Source of the DNA: a virus
Taxonomy: Duplodnaviria > Caudoviricetes
Virus record (IMG/VR): IMGVR_UViG_3300028591_000009
Coordinates: 1 to 64,000 of that record
Reading direction: 5' to 3' (one strand)
DNA length: 64,000 nt
Part shown: positions 2,380 to 63,006 of the stretch, one piece after another
Layout of the letters: each line of letters starts with the position of its first letter
Numbering within the stretch: position 1 is the first letter of the stretch
Notes under the pieces: model-generated
Database searches by the model: none
Seen by the model: only the letters and a program-made list of their open reading frames with translations
Told to the model about the DNA's origin: nothing
Program-made: the position numbers and the translations under genes

Positions 2380-3039
2380 ATGACGCATGATAATGTAAAA
2401 ATTAAGTTCCTGATAGAGTATGACAAGGCAAATGTTACTTCGTCATATCCATCGTTAACAGACTACGAAATCGCAACGATTTTAGACAAAGCTTATTTAG
2501 CGCTAATAGCCAGGAAATTTACAGGCAACAATACTAGAAGAATACCGTTCGAATATGATATTAAATCTATAGAGGATTTAAGACCATTAATTAAAACTGC
2601 AACGTTAGCTTCTTCTAACACTCAACCGATATCGCCAAACGAGAAGGTATATAAATTACAGCCAGATCATCTATATTTTATAGAAGGACATGTAAAGTAT
2701 ACGAACGAATACAAACAAGTCGCAGAAATAGTAAGTCATAAAATAGCTGAAAAGTTTAGAAGTACAGACAGCAATCTTCCTTGGGTTAAGCGTCCCGTAG
2801 TATTTTTGGAAGGTGACGAAGCACACATACTTGTTGACGAATACAAACGTGATGACGTTGAATCGTTCACAACTACTTATATTGGTGAGCCTGCAAGTTT
2901 TATAGGTTTTAGTGGAAACTTCGAATTGTCAGATACAATGGCAGAGGAGTTGATTAGCCTAGCTATAACATTCGCACTTGAGAATGTAGAGTCTTCTAGA
3001 TTACAAACCAAAATATCAACATTACCGCTTGAAGGATGA
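2380..3039 (+). CDS. Tail ring / head-tail connector protein, 219 aa
   Basis: Intact ORF; resembles the paralogous ring proteins that follow (FEYDIKSIEDLRPL vs YEQNEKRTRDLIKL; C-terminal ENVESSRLQ vs ENQQDQRYQ). Confidence 0.7.
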   Translation: MTHDNVKIKFLIEYDKANVTSSYPSLTDYEIATILDKAYLALIARKFTGNNTRRIPFEYDIKSIEDLRPLIKTATLASSNTQPISPNEKVYKLQPDHLYFIEGHVKYTNEYKQVAEIVSHKIAEKFRSTDSNLPWVKRPVVFLEGDEAHILVDEYKRDDVESFTTTYIGEPASFIGFSGNFELSDTMAEELISLAITFALENVESSRLQTKISTLPLEG

Positions 3040-3752
3040 GTTTAGATGAAACAAGACAGCTTGGTATAGAGTTTGAGCGTAGAGTACAAACCATGATACC
3101 CGAGACCGAGATGATCTCAAAGCTAGACACAGAAACAATATACTCTTTTTTGAATCAGTATCAGGATAAGTTTATTCACGATATATACAAAGTGTTGGAC
3201 AATATCCCTTCTCCATCTAAAACATCAGCTTATGTTGAACGTATTATACAAGGTTTGCTGACATCGTATAGATAGAACAACGTAACAACGGAGAATAACA
3301 GCTATTCTATAACACTTCCAGGAAACTTTGGTTTGTACGTAGATAGTTATACCCACGTAAGCGATACATATTCATATAAATCAGAAGGACCTAACAGTGG
3401 AGTTATTCCTAACACACTAGTATCTAAATCAAAGGCGTAGGAGCTAATTACAAGGCCGTAGGACGCGTTTCGCATCATGAGGTAGCCAATTGCCTACCTT
3501 GACGATAACAACGCTCTGAGAGTGTTTTATGACCGTTATACGCAGCCTACAGATTTTGTAATGTCGTACTACAAAACACCTAGATATATGGACTTGTTTA
3601 CTGGTATGGCGTGTGAACTTCCTACAGAAGCTTTTGACGATCTTGTCACAGGTGCTGTAGATTTGTATGTATAGTATGTAGCTGGTGCTGAAGCTAGAAA
3701 ACGTTAGATGCAAGAACAACAGTAGAAACAAAATAAGAAGGAGGAACAATAA
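3036..3752 (+). CDS. Tail ring protein, 238 aa with TAG=Gln
   Basis: Frame continues through 7 TAG codons to TAA at 3750-3752, which overlaps the next ATG (TAATG); C-terminus reads KRQMQEQQQKQNKKEEQ. Confidence 0.8.
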
Positions 3753-26600: not shown

Positions 26601-29600
26601 ATAGGCATTACTGTTACCGCTAAAGAGTTTAATCATCTATTGTTCGAATTATTTGGAAAGACCGATATTCATGCTTTACGTAAGTATTTCCAGCAAGATG
26701 GCGAAGACTTTGGTAGAACAAAAGGTGTTAGTATACGTAAACTTATATTGGCTATTGAGTAGGGAATATAGGAAAATGGAGAGTATTCTAGAACAGTTGT
26801 ATCGGGATCATTCTACAGTGCAATTGGTGCAATAACTCAACTTGCTGACGGTATTTGGTCATATAGACAGACGACAAAAGATCTTATGACTAGAGCTCCT
26901 GGTAAGAATAGATATTATCAAGTGGCAAATAGAAATGCGCAAGATGTATTTATGCAGGATCTTAATACTCCCGATAGCAAAATGCTTAGAGACTTCTTTA
27001 GTAGCCCATATCACAGAGGTTCTATAATGATAGATGCTTTAATGAGAGGGGATGTATATCTGAGGAGTAATACTAACGCGGGATATGTCAGTGACAATAA
27101 GAGTGACTTTGGATAGGACTTTATGAGTATTACTGACCCAGAGGACGCAATAAGCAAGATGACACTTCTTATAGAAGGAGACATTACTCCTCCTACACTG
27201 TCTAATAAGAAAACATATCAACCTGTTTAGATTATTGATCGTAAAACAGAGCAGCAAATACAGTTACCTGGTATATATTACATAGCAAATAGAAACAATG
27301 CACAAACTGCAGATGGTACTGCAGAAGTATATAGTGCAACAAATGTTCCAATTCTTGTAGATAAACCATGGGTTAAACGTGCACAAGGTGATTATAGTCT
27401 TGAGGGAAAGGAATTTGTAGTATCTGATTAGGTATATAATACTCTAATCAAATATGCGTTCTCAGAATATTATCAGATAAAGCAGAACATTGAACGCATG
27501 AAGACAATTCCTGAAGGAGAAAAGGTTGTAAACTACGATACTGCTACTAAAGGAGCAAAGATACCTGGAGCATTAAGATTTTCAAGATTCTATGAAGTAT
27601 ACGTCAGAGAAGAGGTTGATGGAAAACAAAAGTGGATAACTGTTAACTTCAACGACAACAACGCGGAATCGTATGAAGATAATCTCAGAAGAGCTGAAGA
27701 AGTATTCTTTGGAAACGATATAACCTACGAGATGCGAAAAGCTATGCTTACTGAGATAATAAACAGACGCCTAGAGGAGAATCTAGAATATTTGGTAACG
27801 CAGGGTATTCTTAAGCATCGTAGTAAAAACTGGAAGAGTCAACCTGTATATTCTAGATATGAACCTGTTGTTATAGATACAGCACACTTAAACGCTATAC
27901 AAAAACAATACGGACAAAAAATGTCTGACCTATATGGAAACGCCGTAATGCGAAGTGTTGCAACATGTGCGTTTGTTTTAGATATAATGCTTAAACACCA
28001 AATAGGTCTCGAAGAATATCAAAGACTGTTTGTTGGTAATCCTGGATTGTTTGTTACTCTGTTTAATGAAGACGGTAGTGTTAAAGATGATACCGGAGAT
28101 CTATCAAAGCGTTTGGGTGGTCATATGTCTACAGGCGAAACTCAGTGTAGATTGGATGATGCTCCAGATGAATACACCGTTGCCGAGTTAAAAGATTTTA
28201 AGACAACTTCTTCGCAAATAACAGAACTTAAAAGTTGGTTTGAAGAAAGTGAATCGCGTTTTGTACTGTATGCAGATAAGCAAAAGTCTATTTCTATATA
28301 GATTTAGAAGTTGAGATCAAATCTACAAGCAATTGCGTTTGATATATTTAAAAAGGCATATAACGCAGACGGTATATTAAGCACATACGAAGACGTATTT
28401 AAATCAATTGAGGATGAATGGGCAGAAAAGTTTGCTTCTGCGTTAGAGGCGATAAGTAAGTCAGAATCAATGGTTGCTTATTCTATAGCCATGAAGACTT
28501 TGCTTGGAATTATAGATTCGTATAAAACCAGTGTTGTGAGTGCTGAATATAAACGACAAAGACAACTGTCTTTACAACAAGTTAAAGACGAACTAGAAGA
28601 AAGAAAACTTCTTACTGGTGTAAACACTCGTATCGCAGCATATACTTCTAATTTCGTTTCTAAGATAAATGTAGCGGACGGTGCTTCTTTTGTAAGCCCG
28701 ATTATGGTCAAATACATGCTTATGAAGATTGGTAAATTTACCGGCAAAGTCGAAAGGGCGTGGGAATCTCTACAGAAAGGAAACGTATTAGACCCGCTAA
28801 AGAGCGCTGTATTATACAAAGAAATAACAGACGCGTTGTTTGGTACATAGAAGTATACCGCTACCGGATATAGAATGAACAATGGCCAACCTATTACATA
28901 TTATACAAAATCAGCATTCTTCCCACTGTTTAGACAAAACGCACACGGAAGAACCAAGGATATTTTGGATAAAATGGAATAGGATAACGTAATGATGCTT
29001 TGTTTTGAATCAGCTAAGAAATTTGGCAGTCAGGGTAAACAAGATTTCCCAACTACTCCAGAAGAACTTAGCAGCTTCCATTTCAATGTATATAAAGAGG
29101 ATTTCAAATATCTCAGAAAACAGTTGAATACCGATCCAAAAGAAGAGAATTTACAATCTGTAGGATCTCAGACAAAGAAGATCGCGCTAACTATTCTAGA
29201 CATATACAAAGATGATTATGTAAAACGTGATGGAACTACAGAAACTGGACAGCAGCTTAAACAAAGAATATTCGACTGCGAAAGAAGCCTTGCTTCTATA
29301 GGATTCTTAGATCTAATGAACAGATTCTCTAGTGTAGAAGAAAAGGCTAAATATCTTAGAGATAATCTTGGAGAACGAGATGCTGATTCGAATATGTTAC
29401 AAGGTTTATCTTTGGTATTAAATCCAGAAACAAGACAAAAGAGAATGCGTGCCCATTTGGAAGCGTTGTCTAATTCTGGATGGATACAGTCGATCATCAC
29501 GTCTCTTGCAAACAAACATATAGTAGATATAAATCTACCAGGTAGTGCATATATACAGAGATCTGTATATGCGATGGAAGACAATAATATTCTTGGTGAT

Positions 29601-32600
29601 AATCAAGTATACGGTATTCCAAAACTACACATATCTAATGACTGGAGTAGCATGGACGCTGTTGTAAGTATTGACTACTTCTATCAGTTCTTCCCTCAAC
29701 TCGAAGACATGTCCTTCGAAGACGCAAGACAGTGGCTTATTGATCACAACGTAATTGGTGAGAATGCAAAAGCTGAAACTGTAGCATATCGTATTCCAAC
29801 ACAGGCAAACTCGTCTATACACGCTCTACGTTTTATAGATGTAATAAGTACGGTAAGAGATACTATCATACTTCCTGAGGAATTTACAGCTATTACTGGT
29901 TCTGACTTTGATATTGATAAACTGTTTTTATCTACAAAATTCTATTCTTTCGACGAAGAGACAGATGTAGTTAGTACGGAATTTGATAAGCTGAAAGATC
30001 CTATGAAACACTTCGGTAATGAACTTCTGGAGTGTTATCTAGAGCTTCTTACGCAGGATAAGAGCAAATATGCAAATCAGCTTGTTCGCTCTATTGACTA
30101 CGATACATCAATTCCTATGAAAGTTGTTAATTTGCTCAAAGAAGGTAAAGTTGATAAAGTTACGGTATACCAAGCTTTACAATTGTGGAAGCAATGTCAA
30201 ATTAAAGCTTTAAATAGAACTGGTGGAATTAGTGTAGGACCTTACGCTTTGAATAATAACAATGAAATAATGACATCGTTGTTTGAAGTAGAAAGCGATA
30301 ATGTAGGTCTTATACAAGCTCTTGATATAAGCAGATTGTATGATAAACTGGACGCAGAAGGAAACTCCGTAATGGCTACAATTGGCGCATTTATTACTGG
30401 TTCTGTGGACATTGCAAAAGACCCGTGGATTGGCGTATTGAATATCAATGAATACACTTACGATATTCATATATATCTCGCTAGAGCGGGCATGGGTTTA
30501 CGTGCTTTGTGGTTCTGTTCACAACCGATAATGCGTAAAGCAGCAGAAGTATACATACGAGCCGGTGGTTATTTGTTTGATAAGAAAAACGAAAGCGTTT
30601 GGGTTCGTAGAAATAGAGCGTTTACTTAGTTGGAAGATGAATATCTGTTGGACGACGATGGTAAAAATGGAAAGGAAGCTGAATCTACGAAACTACTTAA
30701 AGCAGTAAAAGCCTATCGTAATAGATATGACGCTCTTGGCGGTTCTAAAGCAAAAGACGCGTTAAATCATCGTGTTACAAACGCAGTATACGCAATACAG
30801 CAAATATTTGGCGTTTCTCCAGAAGATCCTTCTGTTAAAATAGACAACTTTAAAGACAATAATGGATTCGATCACGAAGGTACTATATTGCAAGATATAG
30901 CACTGTTCCACAATAAAGAAGAAGATATATTTGATCCAGAAGAAAGATATACAATAAAACAAAAAGTTATTACTGAAGACGGAGAGATTATCGATAAAGA
31001 CATAAAAATATCCGTAAAAGATGTTCAATTCTATGTTTATCTTGCTAATATAATGATTGACGATCCTGTATCAGATATGAAAAATCTTGTACAGTATAGT
31101 AAAATCGAAACAAAGAAACAAGGTAAAAATAGAGCGGAACAGTTAGCATATAATCACAAATATGATTCGTTCTTTAGCAGAGGAAATACTAAGATAATGT
31201 TACCAGAAACTGTTCAGAGAATGGTACAAGATTCTAGTATTGATACAAAGCAAAACTTGTTTACTACAGCAGTAGAGTAGATATTAGGAAAAGAGATGCT
31301 GTCTTATACTCCAGCTTACAAGTATTTTACTGAAGAATTTTCTTCTGTAGCTGTACTTCCATTTACTAAGGATGTAATGAAGAGTATTATTGATGGTGTA
31401 TCTTCTTATCAGAAATGGGAATATATTGAACAATATGCTGAGTTAAATGGTATCTCTATAAGAGACTTATTTGTTGGATCTAAGAGCATTTATAATGAGT
31501 TGATGCGAATAAAGCAGCTTATTATAAATTATCCTGCTGTATATAAAAACTATACAGATGGAAACGGAGATATTACAAATGCTCTGCTCGAATCTTTACA
31601 ACCTTCTGATATTCCAGGATATATAATGTAGGACTATGGTAAAACGCTGCCTAAATTTGTTGATTTTGGAGCAATTCAAGAAAATGAATCTAATAGTAAC
31701 AACGATATTATTGCAGGGTGGGCTCAGATGTTACATGACGAAGAACATAAAGATTTGCAACATTTTGCAAAACGATTGATAGTTTATTCGTTTATAACAT
31801 CTGGAGATACAAACAAACCTGGATCATTCTTTAATCTTGTTCCATTCTCGTGGAGAGAAGATGAATCCAAAAATAGGCTCGATTAGTCTTATATACAATA
31901 TATAGATCAGCTTATAAACGATAGCCAAGAAGGTGATGACGAAGGTAAATTTAGAATCTCAGACAGATTAGAAAATGAAGGTATTTATGAGTTGATTCTT
32001 AGAAACAATTGGTTTGATGACAATCTTGTTCCTACTATACAAGAAACATCAAAAGATGATATGGGAAATACCGTAAGTAACTATTTCTAGTATACAGTTG
32101 CCGGAGAACCTATATTAATCTCGTTGGTAAAAACTACTATAGACGGCAATGGAATGAGAAGATTCCATGAGGCAACATTAGACAAACCAAAACTCATAAT
32201 AAAGTTGCATAATTATGACGCTCATAGTTATAACAACCCACAAGACTTCAAGTTGTATAGATTTGTAAGAATGGGTACTGTATTTGATGCTGACGGAGAA
32301 CCAATAAGCTTCCCTATATATGGAAGAATATCATAGATTGGCGGAGTAATGTACGGACATCATATTATTACGTATCGAGACGATCTTGATATGTCTTGGG
32401 AGCGAGATACTAAATGGTATACAGACAATCTTGACGCCAAAATGGTCGAAGGTATTGCTCAAATAAAAGATCAATTTGAAATTGAGTTTAGGAAAAACGA
32501 AGACCAAATAGCAAAAGGTGTTGTTACAAGAGAGGAGTTGAAATTAGAAACTGCCAAAAATATGGTAGAACAACCAATTATGGGTTCATATGAAGATGGA

Positions 32601-35600
32601 ACTCCGATTGGGTATACAAGAAGTAATGCTACTTAGTTCTACGAAATGGTAAAATCCATGTCTATGTATCATGTTTTGTACGATAAGAAAAATGTTAGAT
32701 ACGATCATAATAACTCTCTTAGATCAATTAAAAAACCAGAACCAATAAAAGATTCTAGTAGATATACGCTGCATTCAGGAGGTGCTCCAGGATCAGATAC
32801 ATATTGGGGAGAAGTTGCTACTCAATATGGTATAGACAGTTAGCGTCATTATTATCACGGAGAACAATCTCCTTCTAATGCTCCAAACGCAAATACAAGA
32901 ATAACAGAAGGTGATTATAACGAGGGTAAAAAAGAAGCTGCAGCTGCTGCAAAATATAATTGGGGTTATCAATACGATTCGATGAAAGACGATCGTCTTG
33001 TTCGCAATTGGAGCCAGGTTAAATACGCAGATGGAATATTTGCAATAGGCCATATAGCTAATCCTGGTGATCCTGTATTCCCAAATCAACCAAATGACAC
33101 TCGCAAAGCAATACATCCGTGTGTTTAGGGTGGTACTGGTTATGCAGTAGGAATGGCAATACTTCACTAGAAACCTGTATATGTGTTTGACCAAGAAGAA
33201 AATCAATGGTTTGCTTGGGATGGATCACAATTTAATCCTATAGATACTCCAACGCTAACTCTTAATTTTGCAGGCATTGGAACTAGAGAGATTAACGAAG
33301 CCGGTAAATAGGCAATTAGAGATGTTTTTGAAAAGACGTTTAAAAAGGTTGTAGAAACAAAGTCAGAAGAACAAAAGAAGATAGATATTTGGAGTACTAA
33401 TCACGACAAATATGCAAATCTTTCTAATGTTGCTATAAGATCTATTGATATTACCCCATCTATCGTATCTGTTGTAAACGAGCATTTCCCGCAAAAAGAA
33501 TCTGCAAAAGCTTTAGATAAACTTGATAATATAACAGAAAGTAGAATGATAAATCGCATATTGCGATTAGCTCCAGAAGGATTTGATAAGTTTAATTCTG
33601 TAGAACAACTATTCTAGCTTATTAAGTTCGAAGCAATGAAGCAATTTATAAGAGAATCTGCTAAAGATTTATACGGATTATCTGGTGTAGATATTGCAAA
33701 AGGATCTACTGAAACTGCTGCTGCAATAAAGAGTGTACTGGATGGTATTAAAGATAAGCAGGATAGAATATTTAAGTCCACCGGATCTAAGATTACTTCT
33801 ATAAGCCATGAAATGATACCTGATATTGATGGTATTAGAGATGCGTTCTTTAACGAAAAGTGGAATCAAGGTGGTCCAGATAATGTATTGAACAGTACTG
33901 CATATGCTATTATTCGCGAGATAATGCTACAATCGTTCTTACAAAATACAGGAGCAGCAAAGTTATTGTTGTCTACAGAGGATTCTGAATTGACACACGA
34001 GAAAGGCGGACTTTATTGGAAGACTGGATTCCCAGCTGCGCTTATGAGCGTTCGTGCCGAAATAGCAGAAAACTATAATACCATTAAAGATGTTGAAAGT
34101 AGAGCTCTTACTTTATTAGGTGGAGATGAAATGGCATATAAGGAATATACGACAGCCATTAAAGCCGGAAAAGAAGGAAAGATGTTCTCTGATGTAGAAC
34201 CGTTCTTTACTCCGGAAGAAGCCGAGCAAATAAAATAGGCTATTCCTAATATGAAGTTCATGGGTAATGATGGTAAGCTTATTGTTACTAGTGCTAGCAG
34301 ACACACAGATCCTGTATTCTATGCAACAGAAGTAATAAATATACTTAGAGAAAATTCTACCAAGCCGTTTACCGATCCAACTAGAATAAATGTTATTGAG
34401 TTATGGAGTAAACATGACGGCATACCAATGTAGAACATTCTCGAGGCTTGTAAGAAGTATAGAGTTGCTCCGATGGTATCATTTAGTATTACAACGCTTG
34501 GAAATACAGTATTTGAGCCTGGTGTTATGAAAGCAGACGATTTGCTTGATAATATAGAAAAGCTTATAAATATAGGTATTCTTGATCCAAGGGTTACTAC
34601 TTTTAGAATAGATCCAATTCTTGTTGGCGTTACTAGTATTCAACAGCTTAAACATGTTATAGAACGTGGTGCGAACATGGGTATTAGAAAGTTTGTTACA
34701 TCTCCTGTACAATCGTATGCGTCTATGCCAAATAGAAGCGTAATTCCTTATGTTGACAAAGCTCTCAAGTCTGACAGTGATTCGTTTATAAAATATCCAG
34801 ATGCTGTAACACAGACTGGAGAATACAACTGGATGAAATATTATGGTAAAGATAAACATAGACCACAATACATAGCGTTTACACCAAAAGCTGAATATGT
34901 TAAACCATACATAGACATGTTCCAAGAAATGATGTCTAAATATGGAATATCTATACAAAGCTGTGCTGTACCTATGGCAGGACTTACACCTTCTGCATGT
35001 CTTGACCCAGAAATCATAGAAGCTATTACTTCTCTTAAGACAGATGCAGTAGAGGATGCTACTAGAAAGTTCTGTAAGTGTTACGGTGTACATTCTGATG
35101 TATTTAGATACAATGACGAATGTAAGAGTTCTTGTGTATATTGTTATGCAGGACAAATGAAGACAGATCCGTTTGATTATTATGACGAATATGGAAAACT
35201 AAAAGATTTTGCTTATAGTAAAGTAAATGAGTATTCTGAAATAGAAGACGGTCCTGTTAAAGTTGTAATTCGCAACGACGAATATACACTGAATGGAAGA
35301 GATGTTGTAGACGCAAATGGACAACCTGTTGACGCTGATACCAAAAATCGTGTAATATGGAAACGTGCAGTTGATATAAACAAGGCAAATCTTGTCAAGG
35401 TTGGCGGTATATATTATGTTGTAACAAACACTGGTATTATATTTAACTGGGGTACTGCTAAAGTTGAAAACTTTGGAAAATATGATACCTTAAAGAAGAC
35501 TATTTTAAGAGCTGCACAGGTTCAATATGATAAACCTGTAGTAAGCACTGTATTTAATGCAGCTGAGTTAAAACAACTTGGCGAATCACGTAAAAAATTC

Positions 35601-51867: not shown

Positions 51868-51948
51868 GGGACAGGTGCTGGATTCGAACCAACATTCTAC
51901 AGCTGACCTATAGCATTACTGCAGTACTACCATTATACTAACCCATCC
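51868..51948 (-). ncRNA. tRNA-like RNA with 14-nt anticodon loop
   Basis: 8-bp acceptor GGATGGGT/ACCTGTCC, D arm GTAT-AATGGTA-GTAC, T arm GTTGG-TTCGAAT-CCAGC. Confidence 0.7.
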
Positions 51949-51951
51949 TTG

Positions 51952-52050
51952 TGTACACCGAGGAATCGAACCTCTCTCCGTTTCGCGAGGACTCGCTTGG
52001 CGATGTCCACGAAGAACCGTCCTAACGTCAATTAGACTTCGGTAGTGTAC
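51952..52050 (-). ncRNA. tRNA-like RNA with expanded, branched core
   Basis: Acceptor GTACACT/GGTGTAC-A, T arm GAGG-TTCGATT-CCTC, internal stems ACCG/CGGT, TCTTCGT/ACGGAGA, GGAC/GTCC. Confidence 0.65.
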
Positions 52051-60313: not shown

Positions 60314-60727
60314 TCAAGAATCGTCTACAATTTCTACACTGTTTGGCGGGTTTGGCAAAGCGTGTAGGTATAGTCTATGAGTCACCCCACAGACATCACT
60401 TAAAGTCTGGTTAGGCTCAACCATATCAGGCGTATAATCCTGACTCACAAGGCTTGAAGTTACCTTCACTGGTGTTGTATAGTCTACATACTCAGGAATA
60501 CATACGAATGTTCCCTGTGTAGCCAACAACCCTTGTGTGGGGTACGCCTGGTTGAGCATGACCTGACTTTGTTCCTTCTTTTCGATTGCCTTATGAGCAA
60601 TCGTTCCTACTGTGAAAGCTAATGTATAGCTTACAAATAGGGCCCAGAATACTTTGTTGCTATTGTTGTATCTTGCGATACCCAATATAAACAGTGTTCC
60701 GAGAATGAACAATAAAGCTACTGTCAT
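60314..60727 (-). CDS. Two-TM membrane protein, 137 aa (possible anti-sigma partner)
   Basis: Two N-terminal hydrophobic helices; ATGA-coupled to the sigma gene. Confidence 0.65.
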   Translation of the reverse strand: MTVALLFILGTLFILGIARYNNSNKVFWALFVSYTLAFTVGTIAHKAIEKKEQSQVMLNQAYPTQGLLATQGTFVCIPEYVDYTTPVKVTSSLVSQDYTPDMVEPNQTLSDVCGVTHRLYLHALPNPPNSVEIVDDS

Positions 60728-61287
60728 GATTGTAATTTTAAACGTTGTCTTAACTTACGTCTAGTCCTGGAGAGCGTGGATTTTATAGTTCCTACTGGTA
60801 CTCTAGGATTAAACGTCTTACTAATCTCTTCTACGGTTAAATTATCTACATAAAATCTTTCAAAGATCTTACGAGTGACCTCTGGAAGTTTCTCAAACTC
60901 ACGAAGTAGTTCCTTATACGTCAGATGATTGACTAAGTCATCTTCAGCACAAGCCTGAATATTGGAGTTTAGTCGGTCCTCCTTTATATCAGCTACTTGT
61001 TTGTTCTTTATACTACGCAAATAATCAATTGCAGTTCGATTAGTCAATATTCGCAGCCAACCCCCAAAGGAGTCGTATGCTACAAATTTCGAGAGTTTAT
61101 CATGCACTTTAAGAAAGACAATATTTGCCACTTCTTTAGACTCGTCCATATCTTTTAGATACTGGAACAAAAGACTCTCTACAAAGCCTTTATACTTGTA
61201 GTAAAGTGCATTAAAAGCAAGCTCATCGCCTGCTTGCGCTTTTTTGATTAAGTCAACTTCAGTTGGGGTGATTCTAGGATTCTTCAT
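60724..61287 (-). CDS. ECF-type sigma-70 factor, ~187 aa
   Basis: AQAGDELAFNALY, SFGGWLRILTNRTAIDYLR (region 2), LPEVTRKIF...VGTIKSTLSRTR (region 4). Confidence 0.9.
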   Translation of the reverse strand: MKNPRITPTEVDLIKKAQAGDELAFNALYYKYKGFVESLLFQYLKDMDESKEVANIVFLKVHDKLSKFVAYDSFGGWLRILTNRTAIDYLRSIKNKQVADIKEDRLNSNIQACAEDDLVNHLTYKELLREFEKLPEVTRKIFERFYVDNLTVEEISKTFNPRVPVGTIKSTLSRTRRKLRQRLKLQS

Positions 61288-61389
61288 AATCAAAAACAAT
61301 TTACTCGGTTTATTAAGGTGTCACTCCTGTACGCGGAACCGAAACGCTTAGTGGGCAGTGGGAATACCAATCCCGTTAGGTTTTCTGCC

Positions 61390-62362: not shown

Positions 62363-62364
62363 AG

Positions 62365-62438
62365 TGATTCCTGAACGATTCGAACGTTCGACCGACAGAT
62401 TAGAAATCTGTTGCTCTATCCAACTGAGCTAAGGAACC
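62365..62438 (-). tRNA. tRNA-Arg(TCT)
   Basis: GGTTCCT/AGGAATC acceptor, GCTC-AGTTGGATA-GAGC D arm, ACAGA-TTTCTAA-TCTGT anticodon arm, GAACG-TTCGAAT-CGTTC T arm. Confidence 0.92.
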
Positions 62439-62499
62439 TTTTGAGGCGTTTGTTTTTATAGTGGTGTCAAGCGAGCCTCTGTAAGCATGTCCACAACAT

Positions 62500-62549
62500 T
62501 GGAATGAGTGCAGGCTTCGAACCTGCCATAGTTCCGTTATTACTCATTC
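62500..62549 (-). ncRNA. tRNA minihelix-like element (acceptor stem plus T arm only)
   Basis: GAATGAGT/ACTCATTC 8-bp stem and GCAGG-TTCGAAG-CCTGC joined by a 15-nt linker. Confidence 0.65.
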
Positions 62550-62551
62550 AC

Positions 62552-62860
62552 CGTTCACAGGCACTTAGGTAGCCTGTACACCGACTTCACGCTGCCTCCT
62601 GGAGACCCGTGTAGTCTGCAATGTTATAATTGCCAGTTAATTTTTATATCGAAGCGCTTAACGTCTTACTTTCCGCTGCCGTCAAAACCATTCAAGCCCA
62701 GATTAAAAGCTCCCGCCTCTATCCTCTGTACACCTTCTTCAGTGCCAGCGAGTACACAATTCAGGGAGCTTGGAGTGTTAATCAATAATACACGTGGACC
62801 TGGGCGGAATCGAACCGCCGTCCGAACAGCATATCCTAGGACACGCTAAGATTTCACTTG
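62552..62860 (-). ncRNA. ssrA: Circularly permuted (two-piece) tmRNA: acceptor piece ~62860-62795, intervening sequence 62794-62700, coding piece 62699-~62552
   Basis: Acceptor GGGCUUG/CAGGUCC-A with G3-U70; GGUUUUGAC D-loop analogue; GGAC-GGCGG-UUCGAUU-CCGCC T arm; tag frame 62634-62587 = GNYNIADYTGLQEAA-UGA after UUAACU. Confidence 0.88.
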
Positions 62861-63006
62861 TGAACCTCACAATGATCAGTTGTAAGATTCGATTTAAGGC
62901 TATTTACAGCCTCTCTGACGCATTTTCTATACTCTTGTGGGTAGCTAATCCTCTGGAGTATATTAAACGCTTAGAATGGCTTTTTCATAAACCTTTATTT
63001 GTAGTA

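Follow-up and report, generated by a model that had tools for sequence, protein, structure and literature searches.

Two-piece transfer-messenger RNAs (tmRNAs) occur in Alphaproteobacteria, some Betaproteobacteria and Cyanobacteria (Rfam models RF01849, RF01850 and RF01851; merged model RF04321), where the gene order is permuted and the tRNA-like domain is built from two strands. Permuted tmRNAs have also been described in phages, mostly marine ones, e.g., the Methylophilales phage Melnitz (PMC9004378). A tmRNA database published in 2025 screened the RefSeq viruses and reports 79 phage sequences; the forms listed in that paper include no combined permuted-plus-intron gene (PMC11915505). The DNA analyzed here is a stretch of 64,000 nucleotides (the window) of IMG/VR record IMGVR_UViG_3300028591_000009. 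It harbours a tmRNA gene that shares the permuted order and the two-stranded tRNA-like domain with the classical two-piece tmRNAs, but differs from them by the lack of PK1, a much shorter acceptor piece, a CCA end that is not encoded, resumption at GGC and a 3' tRNA-like handle. A preliminary description of the window restricted permuted tmRNAs to the three bacterial groups, a view superseded by the published phage copies and by the annotation of sister phages in RefSeq.

The closest described genes are found in Suoliviridae phages. RefSeq carries the label “transfer-messenger RNA, SsrA” in all six relatives whose annotation was inspected, namely cr272_1 (NC_055903), cr273_1 (NC_055904), cr131_1 (NC_055902), cr130_1 (NC_055901), cr52_1 (NC_055888) and cr10_1 (NC_055875). 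These copies belong to the same gene family, occupy the same place upstream of a sigma-factor gene and a tRNA cluster, and have the permuted arrangement and the core of the tag, xN(x)N(V/I)(V/A)DYT, in common with the window. The window copy is approximately 80% identical to them, a figure that refers to the coding part only, and it differs in T stem and acceptor pairs, in its longer spacer (95 nt) and in the tag variant GNYNIADYTGLQEAA. The RefSeq records give an automatic label alone, without a description, and a full-text search of open-access PMC and bioRxiv retrieved no paper on tmRNA in crAss-like phages. The gene is a further member of a family that is annotated in RefSeq but undescribed in the literature searched, and the six annotations weaken the novelty implied earlier.

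The source record is a complete genome of 106,602 bp with direct terminal repeats. The phage is a TAG-recoded, crAss-like gut phage of the Suoliviridae and Oafivirinae-like; its DNA polymerase is 78% identical to the counterparts of cr272_1 and cr273_1 (Suoliviridae, Oafivirinae). The recoding noticed before is real: ORFs of 5975, 2163 and 1456 amino acids are open solely with TAG read as sense, and a tRNA with the anticodon CUA, labelled tRNA-Pyl by ARAGORN, is encoded outside the window at genome positions 77731-77805 (+). This tRNA(CUA), an amber suppressor, is the likely agent of TAG reassignment. SmpB (PF01668), previously reported missing from the window, was not found across the complete 106,602-bp genome either, and hence host SmpB would be needed. 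As a separate observation, the window contains an odd tRNA at 51868-51947 (-), which scores 42 bits in Rfam and has a 16-nt anticodon-loop region containing CUA; in intron mode ARAGORN reads it as tRNA-Asp(GUC) with a 9-nt intron. Just upstream, at 51950-51980, lies the 3' end of another tRNA-like T arm.

Positions 62850-62551 (-) of the window are a circularly permuted tmRNA gene. Both types of search proposed for the locus were run and find it: the ARAGORN prediction is a permuted tmRNA (tmRNA*) that spans 62496-62886 (-) and encodes GNYNIADYTGLQEAA* as its tag, and RF04321 (tmRNA_permuted) matches 62587-62845 (-) over the full model (1-213) with 64.5 bits (E 3.7e-10; gathering score 47 bits). 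The original call of a permuted two-piece tmRNA is thereby confirmed by both programs, and covariation among 13-14 relatives agrees with it. The window fails the classical subtype models (RF01849, RF01850 and RF01851); the best of these is RF01850 (beta_tmRNA), where its 32 bits, well short of the gathering score (84), come solely from the model positions 75-172 that represent the tRNA-like domain. On the minus strand, the segment with T arm and 3' acceptor strand (62819-62795) precedes G1 (62699). Given that more than 20 independent contigs or records show the same permuted order and that the genome is a complete one with terminal repeats, an assembly artefact, named at the outset as a possible refutation, does not account for it.

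The neighbours of the tmRNA on the minus strand are standard-code genes, and the tmRNA is located upstream of a tRNA-Arg and a sigma-factor gene. The flanking features are as follows:

60724-61299: sigma-factor gene (PHROGs)
62364-62438, minus strand: tRNA-Arg(UCU), downstream of the tmRNA (ARAGORN and Rfam)
62862-62890, minus strand: upstream hairpin (11-bp stem, loop CUGAUCA), separated from the acceptor piece by about 10 nt

PHROGs assigned no function to the flanking small ORFs besides sigma factor and DNA polymerase. The tRNA-Arg(UCU) is probably part of the same transcription unit as the tmRNA, and a terminator-like hairpin at 63350-63331 (-) suggests that this unit is a separate one. 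A sigma-70 promoter scan, using a tool that does not cover Bacteroidota or phage promoters, yielded nothing on the minus strand. The upstream hairpin shows stem covariation in many relatives, cr130_1 and Bohxovirus among them, and keeps its CUGAUCA loop in about two thirds of the relatives, as judged from alignments read by eye; it may or may not be part of the tmRNA transcript.

The acceptor piece is transcribed first and is followed by the spacer:

62795-62850, minus strand: acceptor piece, with a predicted 5' end (Rfam alignment and covariation)
62819-62815/62807-62803, minus strand: T arm, loop UUCGAUU
62802-62796, minus strand: 3' acceptor strand (read from the sequence)
62795, minus strand: discriminator A73 (read from the sequence)
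62794, minus strand: C74, followed by GUG
62700-62794, minus strand: intervening spacer of 95 nt, starting with the invariant C74
62771-62764/62714-62707, minus strand: 8-bp spacer stem AAGCUCCC/GGGAGCUU

These coordinates agree with the arrangement first read from the DNA, in which the T arm and the 3' strand of the acceptor come first, a stem-containing spacer of about 95 nt follows and the 5' end at 62699 comes next. The spacer is presumably cut out during processing; among the relatives its length lies between 17 and 201 nt, without conservation of sequence. As C74 is followed by GUG, CCA is not encoded, as the preliminary description had it. The alanine identity elements claimed for the RNA are present as well: G3 (62697) pairs with U70 (62798), A73 is found at 62795, and G3-U70, A73 and C74 are invariant among the relatives, while the acceptor-stem positions 4-7 covary. 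In four sequences, MAFFT places the 5' acceptor strand one base out of register; when these strands are aligned by hand or script, they pair at 7/7 positions and keep G3-U70. Two relatives deviate in the T arm, with a non-canonical T loop in L129 and a damaged T stem in L125.

The second piece provides the 5' acceptor strand, the partners of three P2 helices and the tag frame. Its upstream part comprises:

62551-62699, minus strand: coding piece, 5' end G1 at 62699, 3' end predicted
62699-62693, minus strand: 5' acceptor strand, with G3 at 62697 pairing with U70
62690-62681, minus strand: D-loop analogue UGGUUUUGAC
62830-62825 with 62680-62675, minus strand: P2a, GCUGUU/GGCAGC (covariation)
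62842-62840 with 62665-62663, minus strand: P2b, GUC/GAC (covariation)
62847-62843 with 62657-62653, minus strand: P2c, AGCGU/GCGCU (covariation)

The structure was tested on 13 relatives collected from IMG/VR and RefSeq (alignment A2) with a model of nine helices: T arm, acceptor stem, P2a-c, two pseudoknot stems and two minihelix helices. In this model 87.7% of the cells are paired, with compensatory changes in 29 of the 48 pairs, and only 35-43% are paired on A2 in a control where the 3' partners were slid by 1-3 columns. The T arm (93.8% of cells paired), P2a (88%), P2b (100%) and P2c (98%) each show compensatory changes. Three helices beyond the acceptor stem had been proposed originally. 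GGCAGC/GCUGUU is upheld as P2a; the two others, ACGUUAAG/CUUAGCGU and CGCUU/AAGUG, are 41-68% paired over the 13 relatives with essentially no compensatory change and were replaced by P2b and P2c. A single-sequence cofold of the two predicted mature pieces recovers the acceptor stem, the T arm, the ORF hairpin and pseudoknot stem S2, but not P2a-c, and the P2 helices therefore rest on covariation instead.

Downstream of P2c, the coding piece continues as a single-stranded A/U-rich leader. PK1 is normally important in tmRNA. The space between P2c and the resume codon GGC amounts to about 18 A/U-rich nucleotides (62652-62635), which bears out the earlier remark that there is no room for PK1, and the hairpin positions of PK1 are deleted in the Rfam alignment to RF04321. 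The leader is followed by the tag frame and a pseudoknot:

62587-62634, minus strand: tag reading frame, resume codon GGC at 62634-62632, stop codon UGA at 62589-62587 (ARAGORN)
62606-62594, minus strand: hairpin within the tag frame, GUCUC-CAG-GAGGC, 94% paired, one compensatory change (L128)
62557-62582, minus strand: H-type pseudoknot after the stop codon (covariation)
62582-62579 with 62571-62568, minus strand: pseudoknot stem S1, GGUG/UACC
62577-62572 with 62562-62557, minus strand: pseudoknot stem S2, ACAGGC/GCCUGU

In the pseudoknot, S1 is 100% paired and shows compensatory changes from GC to CG and from GC to AU (variants CGUG/UACG and AGUG/UACU), and S2 covaries at five of its six pairs; slid controls in the test of pseudoknot and hairpin are 33-46% paired. 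More distant family members, read by eye, also possess a pseudoknot after the tag. The claim that PK2-4 find no place is thus half right: PK3 and PK4 are absent from the window tmRNA, yet one covarying H-type pseudoknot exists at 62582-62557. A further helix across the tag frame (GACU/AGUC) is 95% paired but invariant and is neutral evidence.

The tag frame runs from GGC to UGA over 15 codons and specifies (A)GNYNIADYTGLQEAA, which has an apolar C-terminus, AA; the resume context is AAUUAACU followed by GGC. Resume codon and stop, as initially read, are the same in the ARAGORN call. The tag frame is under coding-type constraint. Over 13 ungapped copies the variable columns are distributed 4/3/9 over the three codon positions, and 46% of the codon differences are synonymous in frame; for the two shifted frames the figures are 22% and 11%. 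The tags of the relatives are 12-15 residues long, change in length by whole codons only, retain a DYT core and end in EAA, VA or AA, as opposed to LAA in the host tag; among 13 copies the stop codon is TGA or TAA, never TAG.

These features bear on the idea that the RNA serves as a decoy or competitor, which would block or redirect trans-translation of the host rather than productively rescue ribosomes. Such a role is reported for the frame-less tmRNA-like RNA of mycobacteriophage DS6A, a precedent cited in PMC11915505. The missing PK1 and the unusual tag ending would suit such a role, as would the dependence of the phage on host SmpB, which the RNA could titrate. However, the frame is maintained, varies at third positions and changes in length (12-15 residues) by entire codons only, which speaks for translation of the tag rather than for a pure decoy. 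Moreover, the resume context is the same as that of the host, and all charging determinants are kept. We therefore judge a decoy function to be quite improbable and favour a productive tmRNA.

The 3' end of the coding piece is directly adjoined by a small tRNA-like element:

62501-62549, minus strand: tRNA-like minihelix (pattern search and covariation)

The minihelix consists of an acceptor stem GAAUGAG(U)/(A)CUCAUUC (7-8 bp), a 15-nt linker and a T arm GCAGG-UUCGAAG-CCUGC, which is 93.8% paired with four covarying pairs on A2, and the element was re-found independently by the pattern search. A minihelix or a full tRNA is located at the 3' end of the coding piece in every relative; full tRNAs take this place in L106, with tRNA(CAU), and in cr1_1, with tRNA-Lys, while cr10_1 and cr118_1 have 66-nt matches to the tRNA model there. 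Minihelices composed of an acceptor stem plus a T arm are RNase P substrates. On these grounds, the element at 62549-62501 is probably an RNase P handle, and a predicted cut at its 5' end would set the 3' end of the coding piece. Elsewhere in the genome, a second anticodon-less minihelix with acceptor stem and T arm occurs at 89476-89517 (+), and such minihelices may act as RNA-processing punctuation.

From the sequence we infer processing, charging, tagging and a benefit to the phage as follows. A single precursor would run from the acceptor piece through the spacer, the coding piece and the minihelix to the tRNA-Arg. Host RNase P would cleave twice, once at G1 (62699) and once at the 5' boundary of the minihelix, and a host 3' nuclease would trim the acceptor piece to A73/C74, upon which the CCA-adding enzyme would finish the end. 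The two halves, paired by the acceptor stem and P2a-c, would form a tmRNA reduced to roughly 205-215 nt. Host AlaRS would charge this RNA via G3-U70 and A73, and host SmpB would bring it to stalled ribosomes, where translation would resume at GGC and add (A)GNYNIADYTGLQEAA; the phage tag peptide expected on rescued proteins is AGNYNIADYTGLQEAA. During infection, the RNA is predicted to serve ribosome rescue and tagging in general rather than TAG recoding specifically. In sum, we hold with considerable confidence that the locus encodes a functional permuted tmRNA of a Suoliviridae phage, which most likely goes back to a one-piece tmRNA from a Bacteroidota host and would provide general rescue along with a phage-specific tag.

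How closely the gene follows the genetic code of the phage can be judged from its distribution. Searches with R1, a covariance model built on the coding piece, recover the gene in 10 of 10 further Suoliviridae records tested, including four standard-code phages:

Oafivirinae: cr130_1, 94.7 bits; Bohxovirus, 79.7 bits (a copy missed by ARAGORN)
Dulem virus 42 (record unclassified below Caudoviricetes): 50.5 bits
Loutivirinae: cr52_1, 32.5 bits; cr56_1, 27.9 bits; cr4_1, 22 bits
Boorivirinae: cr10_1, 46.7 bits (49.6 bits with RF04321); cr1_1 and cr55_1, about 23.5 bits each
Uncouvirinae: cr118_1, 35.7 bits

Upon inspection, the low-scoring matches show a recognisable tag frame, pseudoknot and acceptor strands, except for cr56_1, where no acceptor piece was found within 1.5 kb. 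Among the standard-code copies, that of cr10_1 is certain, that of cr118_1 is good, and those of cr1_1 and cr55_1 are marginal by score.

The tmRNA had initially been linked to the code switch, and a test for co-occurrence with TAG recoding had been suggested. In its specific form, this explanation holds that the RNA serves TAG reassignment, by rescue at UAG or by handling run-off on host mRNAs once the suppressor tRNA is made. It draws on the tRNA(CUA) of the genome, on tag frames that never end in TAG and on TAG recoding in this phage and in every tested relative from the Oafivirinae and Loutivirinae: a TAG-rich late gene of the window has homologues with in-frame TAGs in both groups. Yet co-occurrence within the family is confounded by shared ancestry, and the test, now carried out, finds the gene in recoded and standard-code Suoliviridae alike. 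It is present in cr10_1 (annotated in RefSeq), cr118_1, cr1_1 and cr55_1, where the late-gene homologue is an uninterrupted frame of 1342-1524 amino acids. The tmRNA thus tracks the phage family and not the code, the proposed tie to the code switch is not borne out, and we deem a dedicated function in TAG reassignment very unlikely.

Several features of these relatives deserve mention in their own right. In Bohxovirus (PV686213, W02) the late-gene homologue at 28801-33504 has both TAA and TAG in frame (4 TAG and 4 TAA in one match); the in-frame TAA could reflect frameshifts, an alignment across gene borders or a different code. In cr10_1 (L201), some 1.3 kb separate the tmRNA from a RAGATH-9 RNA (RF03146, 96.3 bits) located at 2967-3141 (-). 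An insertion of approximately 800 nt interrupts the T loop of the acceptor piece in cr4_1 (L195, NC_055893, 2233-2484 (-)), cr118_1 (L202), cr1_1 (L204) and cr55_1 (L205). The insertion carries a Cys-rich ORF of 166-170 amino acids on the opposite strand, and in cr4_1 it matches the Rfam group I intron model RF00028 with 74.9 bits from the split onward.

For the origin of the permuted form, 17 distinct one-piece tmRNAs of Bacteroidota (tag GENNYALAA, about 397 nt; examples L157-L185) served as the host comparison set. They share with the phage family the resume context AAUUUAACU followed by GGC, with a 13-nt identity between L158 and L090, and glycine as the first encoded residue of the tag. 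Also common to both are a 3' gene end CCAC with CCA not encoded, a D-loop analogue that reads U(U/A)GAC where UCGAC is usual, and the motif GUAAG, which is present in 17 of 17 host-type but only 9 of 72 beta-type copies. In addition, the acceptor stem of one of the Bacteroidota one-piece RNAs (L178) is identical to that of the window. In contrast to the phage form, the Bacteroidota RNA is not permuted, is twice as long, folds into four pseudoknots and has a tag ending in LAA; the phage RNA is split, lacks PK1, retains one pseudoknot and encodes a longer tag ending in EAA.

Descent from the one-piece tmRNA of the host would imply that the permutation arose independently, as suggested in the preliminary description. 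Of that suggestion, the Bacteroidota-like traits are real, the resume context in particular being shared with Bacteroidota one-piece tmRNAs, while the permutation event itself is plausible, not proven: the host-like traits could also reflect adaptation to host SmpB and processing enzymes instead of descent. Alternatively, the gene might stem from a pre-existing permuted lineage of the beta type, which is common in environmental phages, and might have adapted to Bacteroidota hosts later, without any independent permutation. What points in this direction is an exact 23-nt string comprising T arm and acceptor strand of the window, which recurs in more than 100 permuted tmRNAs of IMG/VR and in permuted tmRNAs of Cupriavidus. 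All nine string carriers that were scanned match RF04321 (95-136 bits), seven of the nine reach the RF01850 gathering score, and the best classical-subtype match of the window, at 32 bits, is to the tRNA-like domain of beta_tmRNA.

The same 23-nt string, however, forms the end of tRNA-Ala(CGC) in Patescibacteria, the identical acceptor stem is found in the one-piece L178, and family members with a GAGGG T stem score better on the Bacteroidota nhmmer profile; the match is thus a probe artefact. A beta-type origin deduced from the shared 23-mer was accordingly rejected as the product of probe selection. The nhmmer comparison of Bacteroidota and beta profiles is itself uninformative for the origin, because the beta set was picked by the window's own T arm. 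Furthermore, the window stays far under the RF01850 gathering score (32 versus 84 bits), and all 72 distinct beta-type copies contain UUUCGAC and almost all encode CCA and resume at GCN, in which the phage family is unlike them. We thus consider descent from the beta lineage unlikely, if less so than the decoy or the recoding device, and favour, with some reserve, a separate permutation derived from Bacteroidota. The viral contigs of IMG/VR (L004-L122, more than 100, many of them from environmental metagenomes) are of interest for their tags, too: their permuted tmRNAs encode tags such as ANDERFALAA, and several have long tags of 27-30 residues, e.g., AKTSTTGAVKVSMGRGFRFGSATKTATFA.

Taking the favoured separate permutation one step further, we lean slightly towards regarding the Suoliviridae tmRNAs as a fourth independent origin of two-piece tmRNA, which would have occurred in a phage and from a Bacteroidota one-piece RNA. 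The RNA would have been stripped to about 210 nt and furnished with tRNA-like 3' punctuation and, in some members, with a T-loop insertion. If this reading is true, permuted-plus-intron is a combined gene form that is absent from the published list (PMC11915505). Overall, the findings indicate that an abundant gut-phage family possesses a ribosome-rescue RNA of its own, irrespective of the genetic code in use. This naturally minimised tmRNA, with no PK1, one pseudoknot and a length of about 210 nt, would need SmpB, AlaRS and RNase P of its Bacteroidota hosts, and it is a compact system in which to ask what elements a tmRNA can do without, by what route permuted genes come about and what a phage may gain from a tag of its own.
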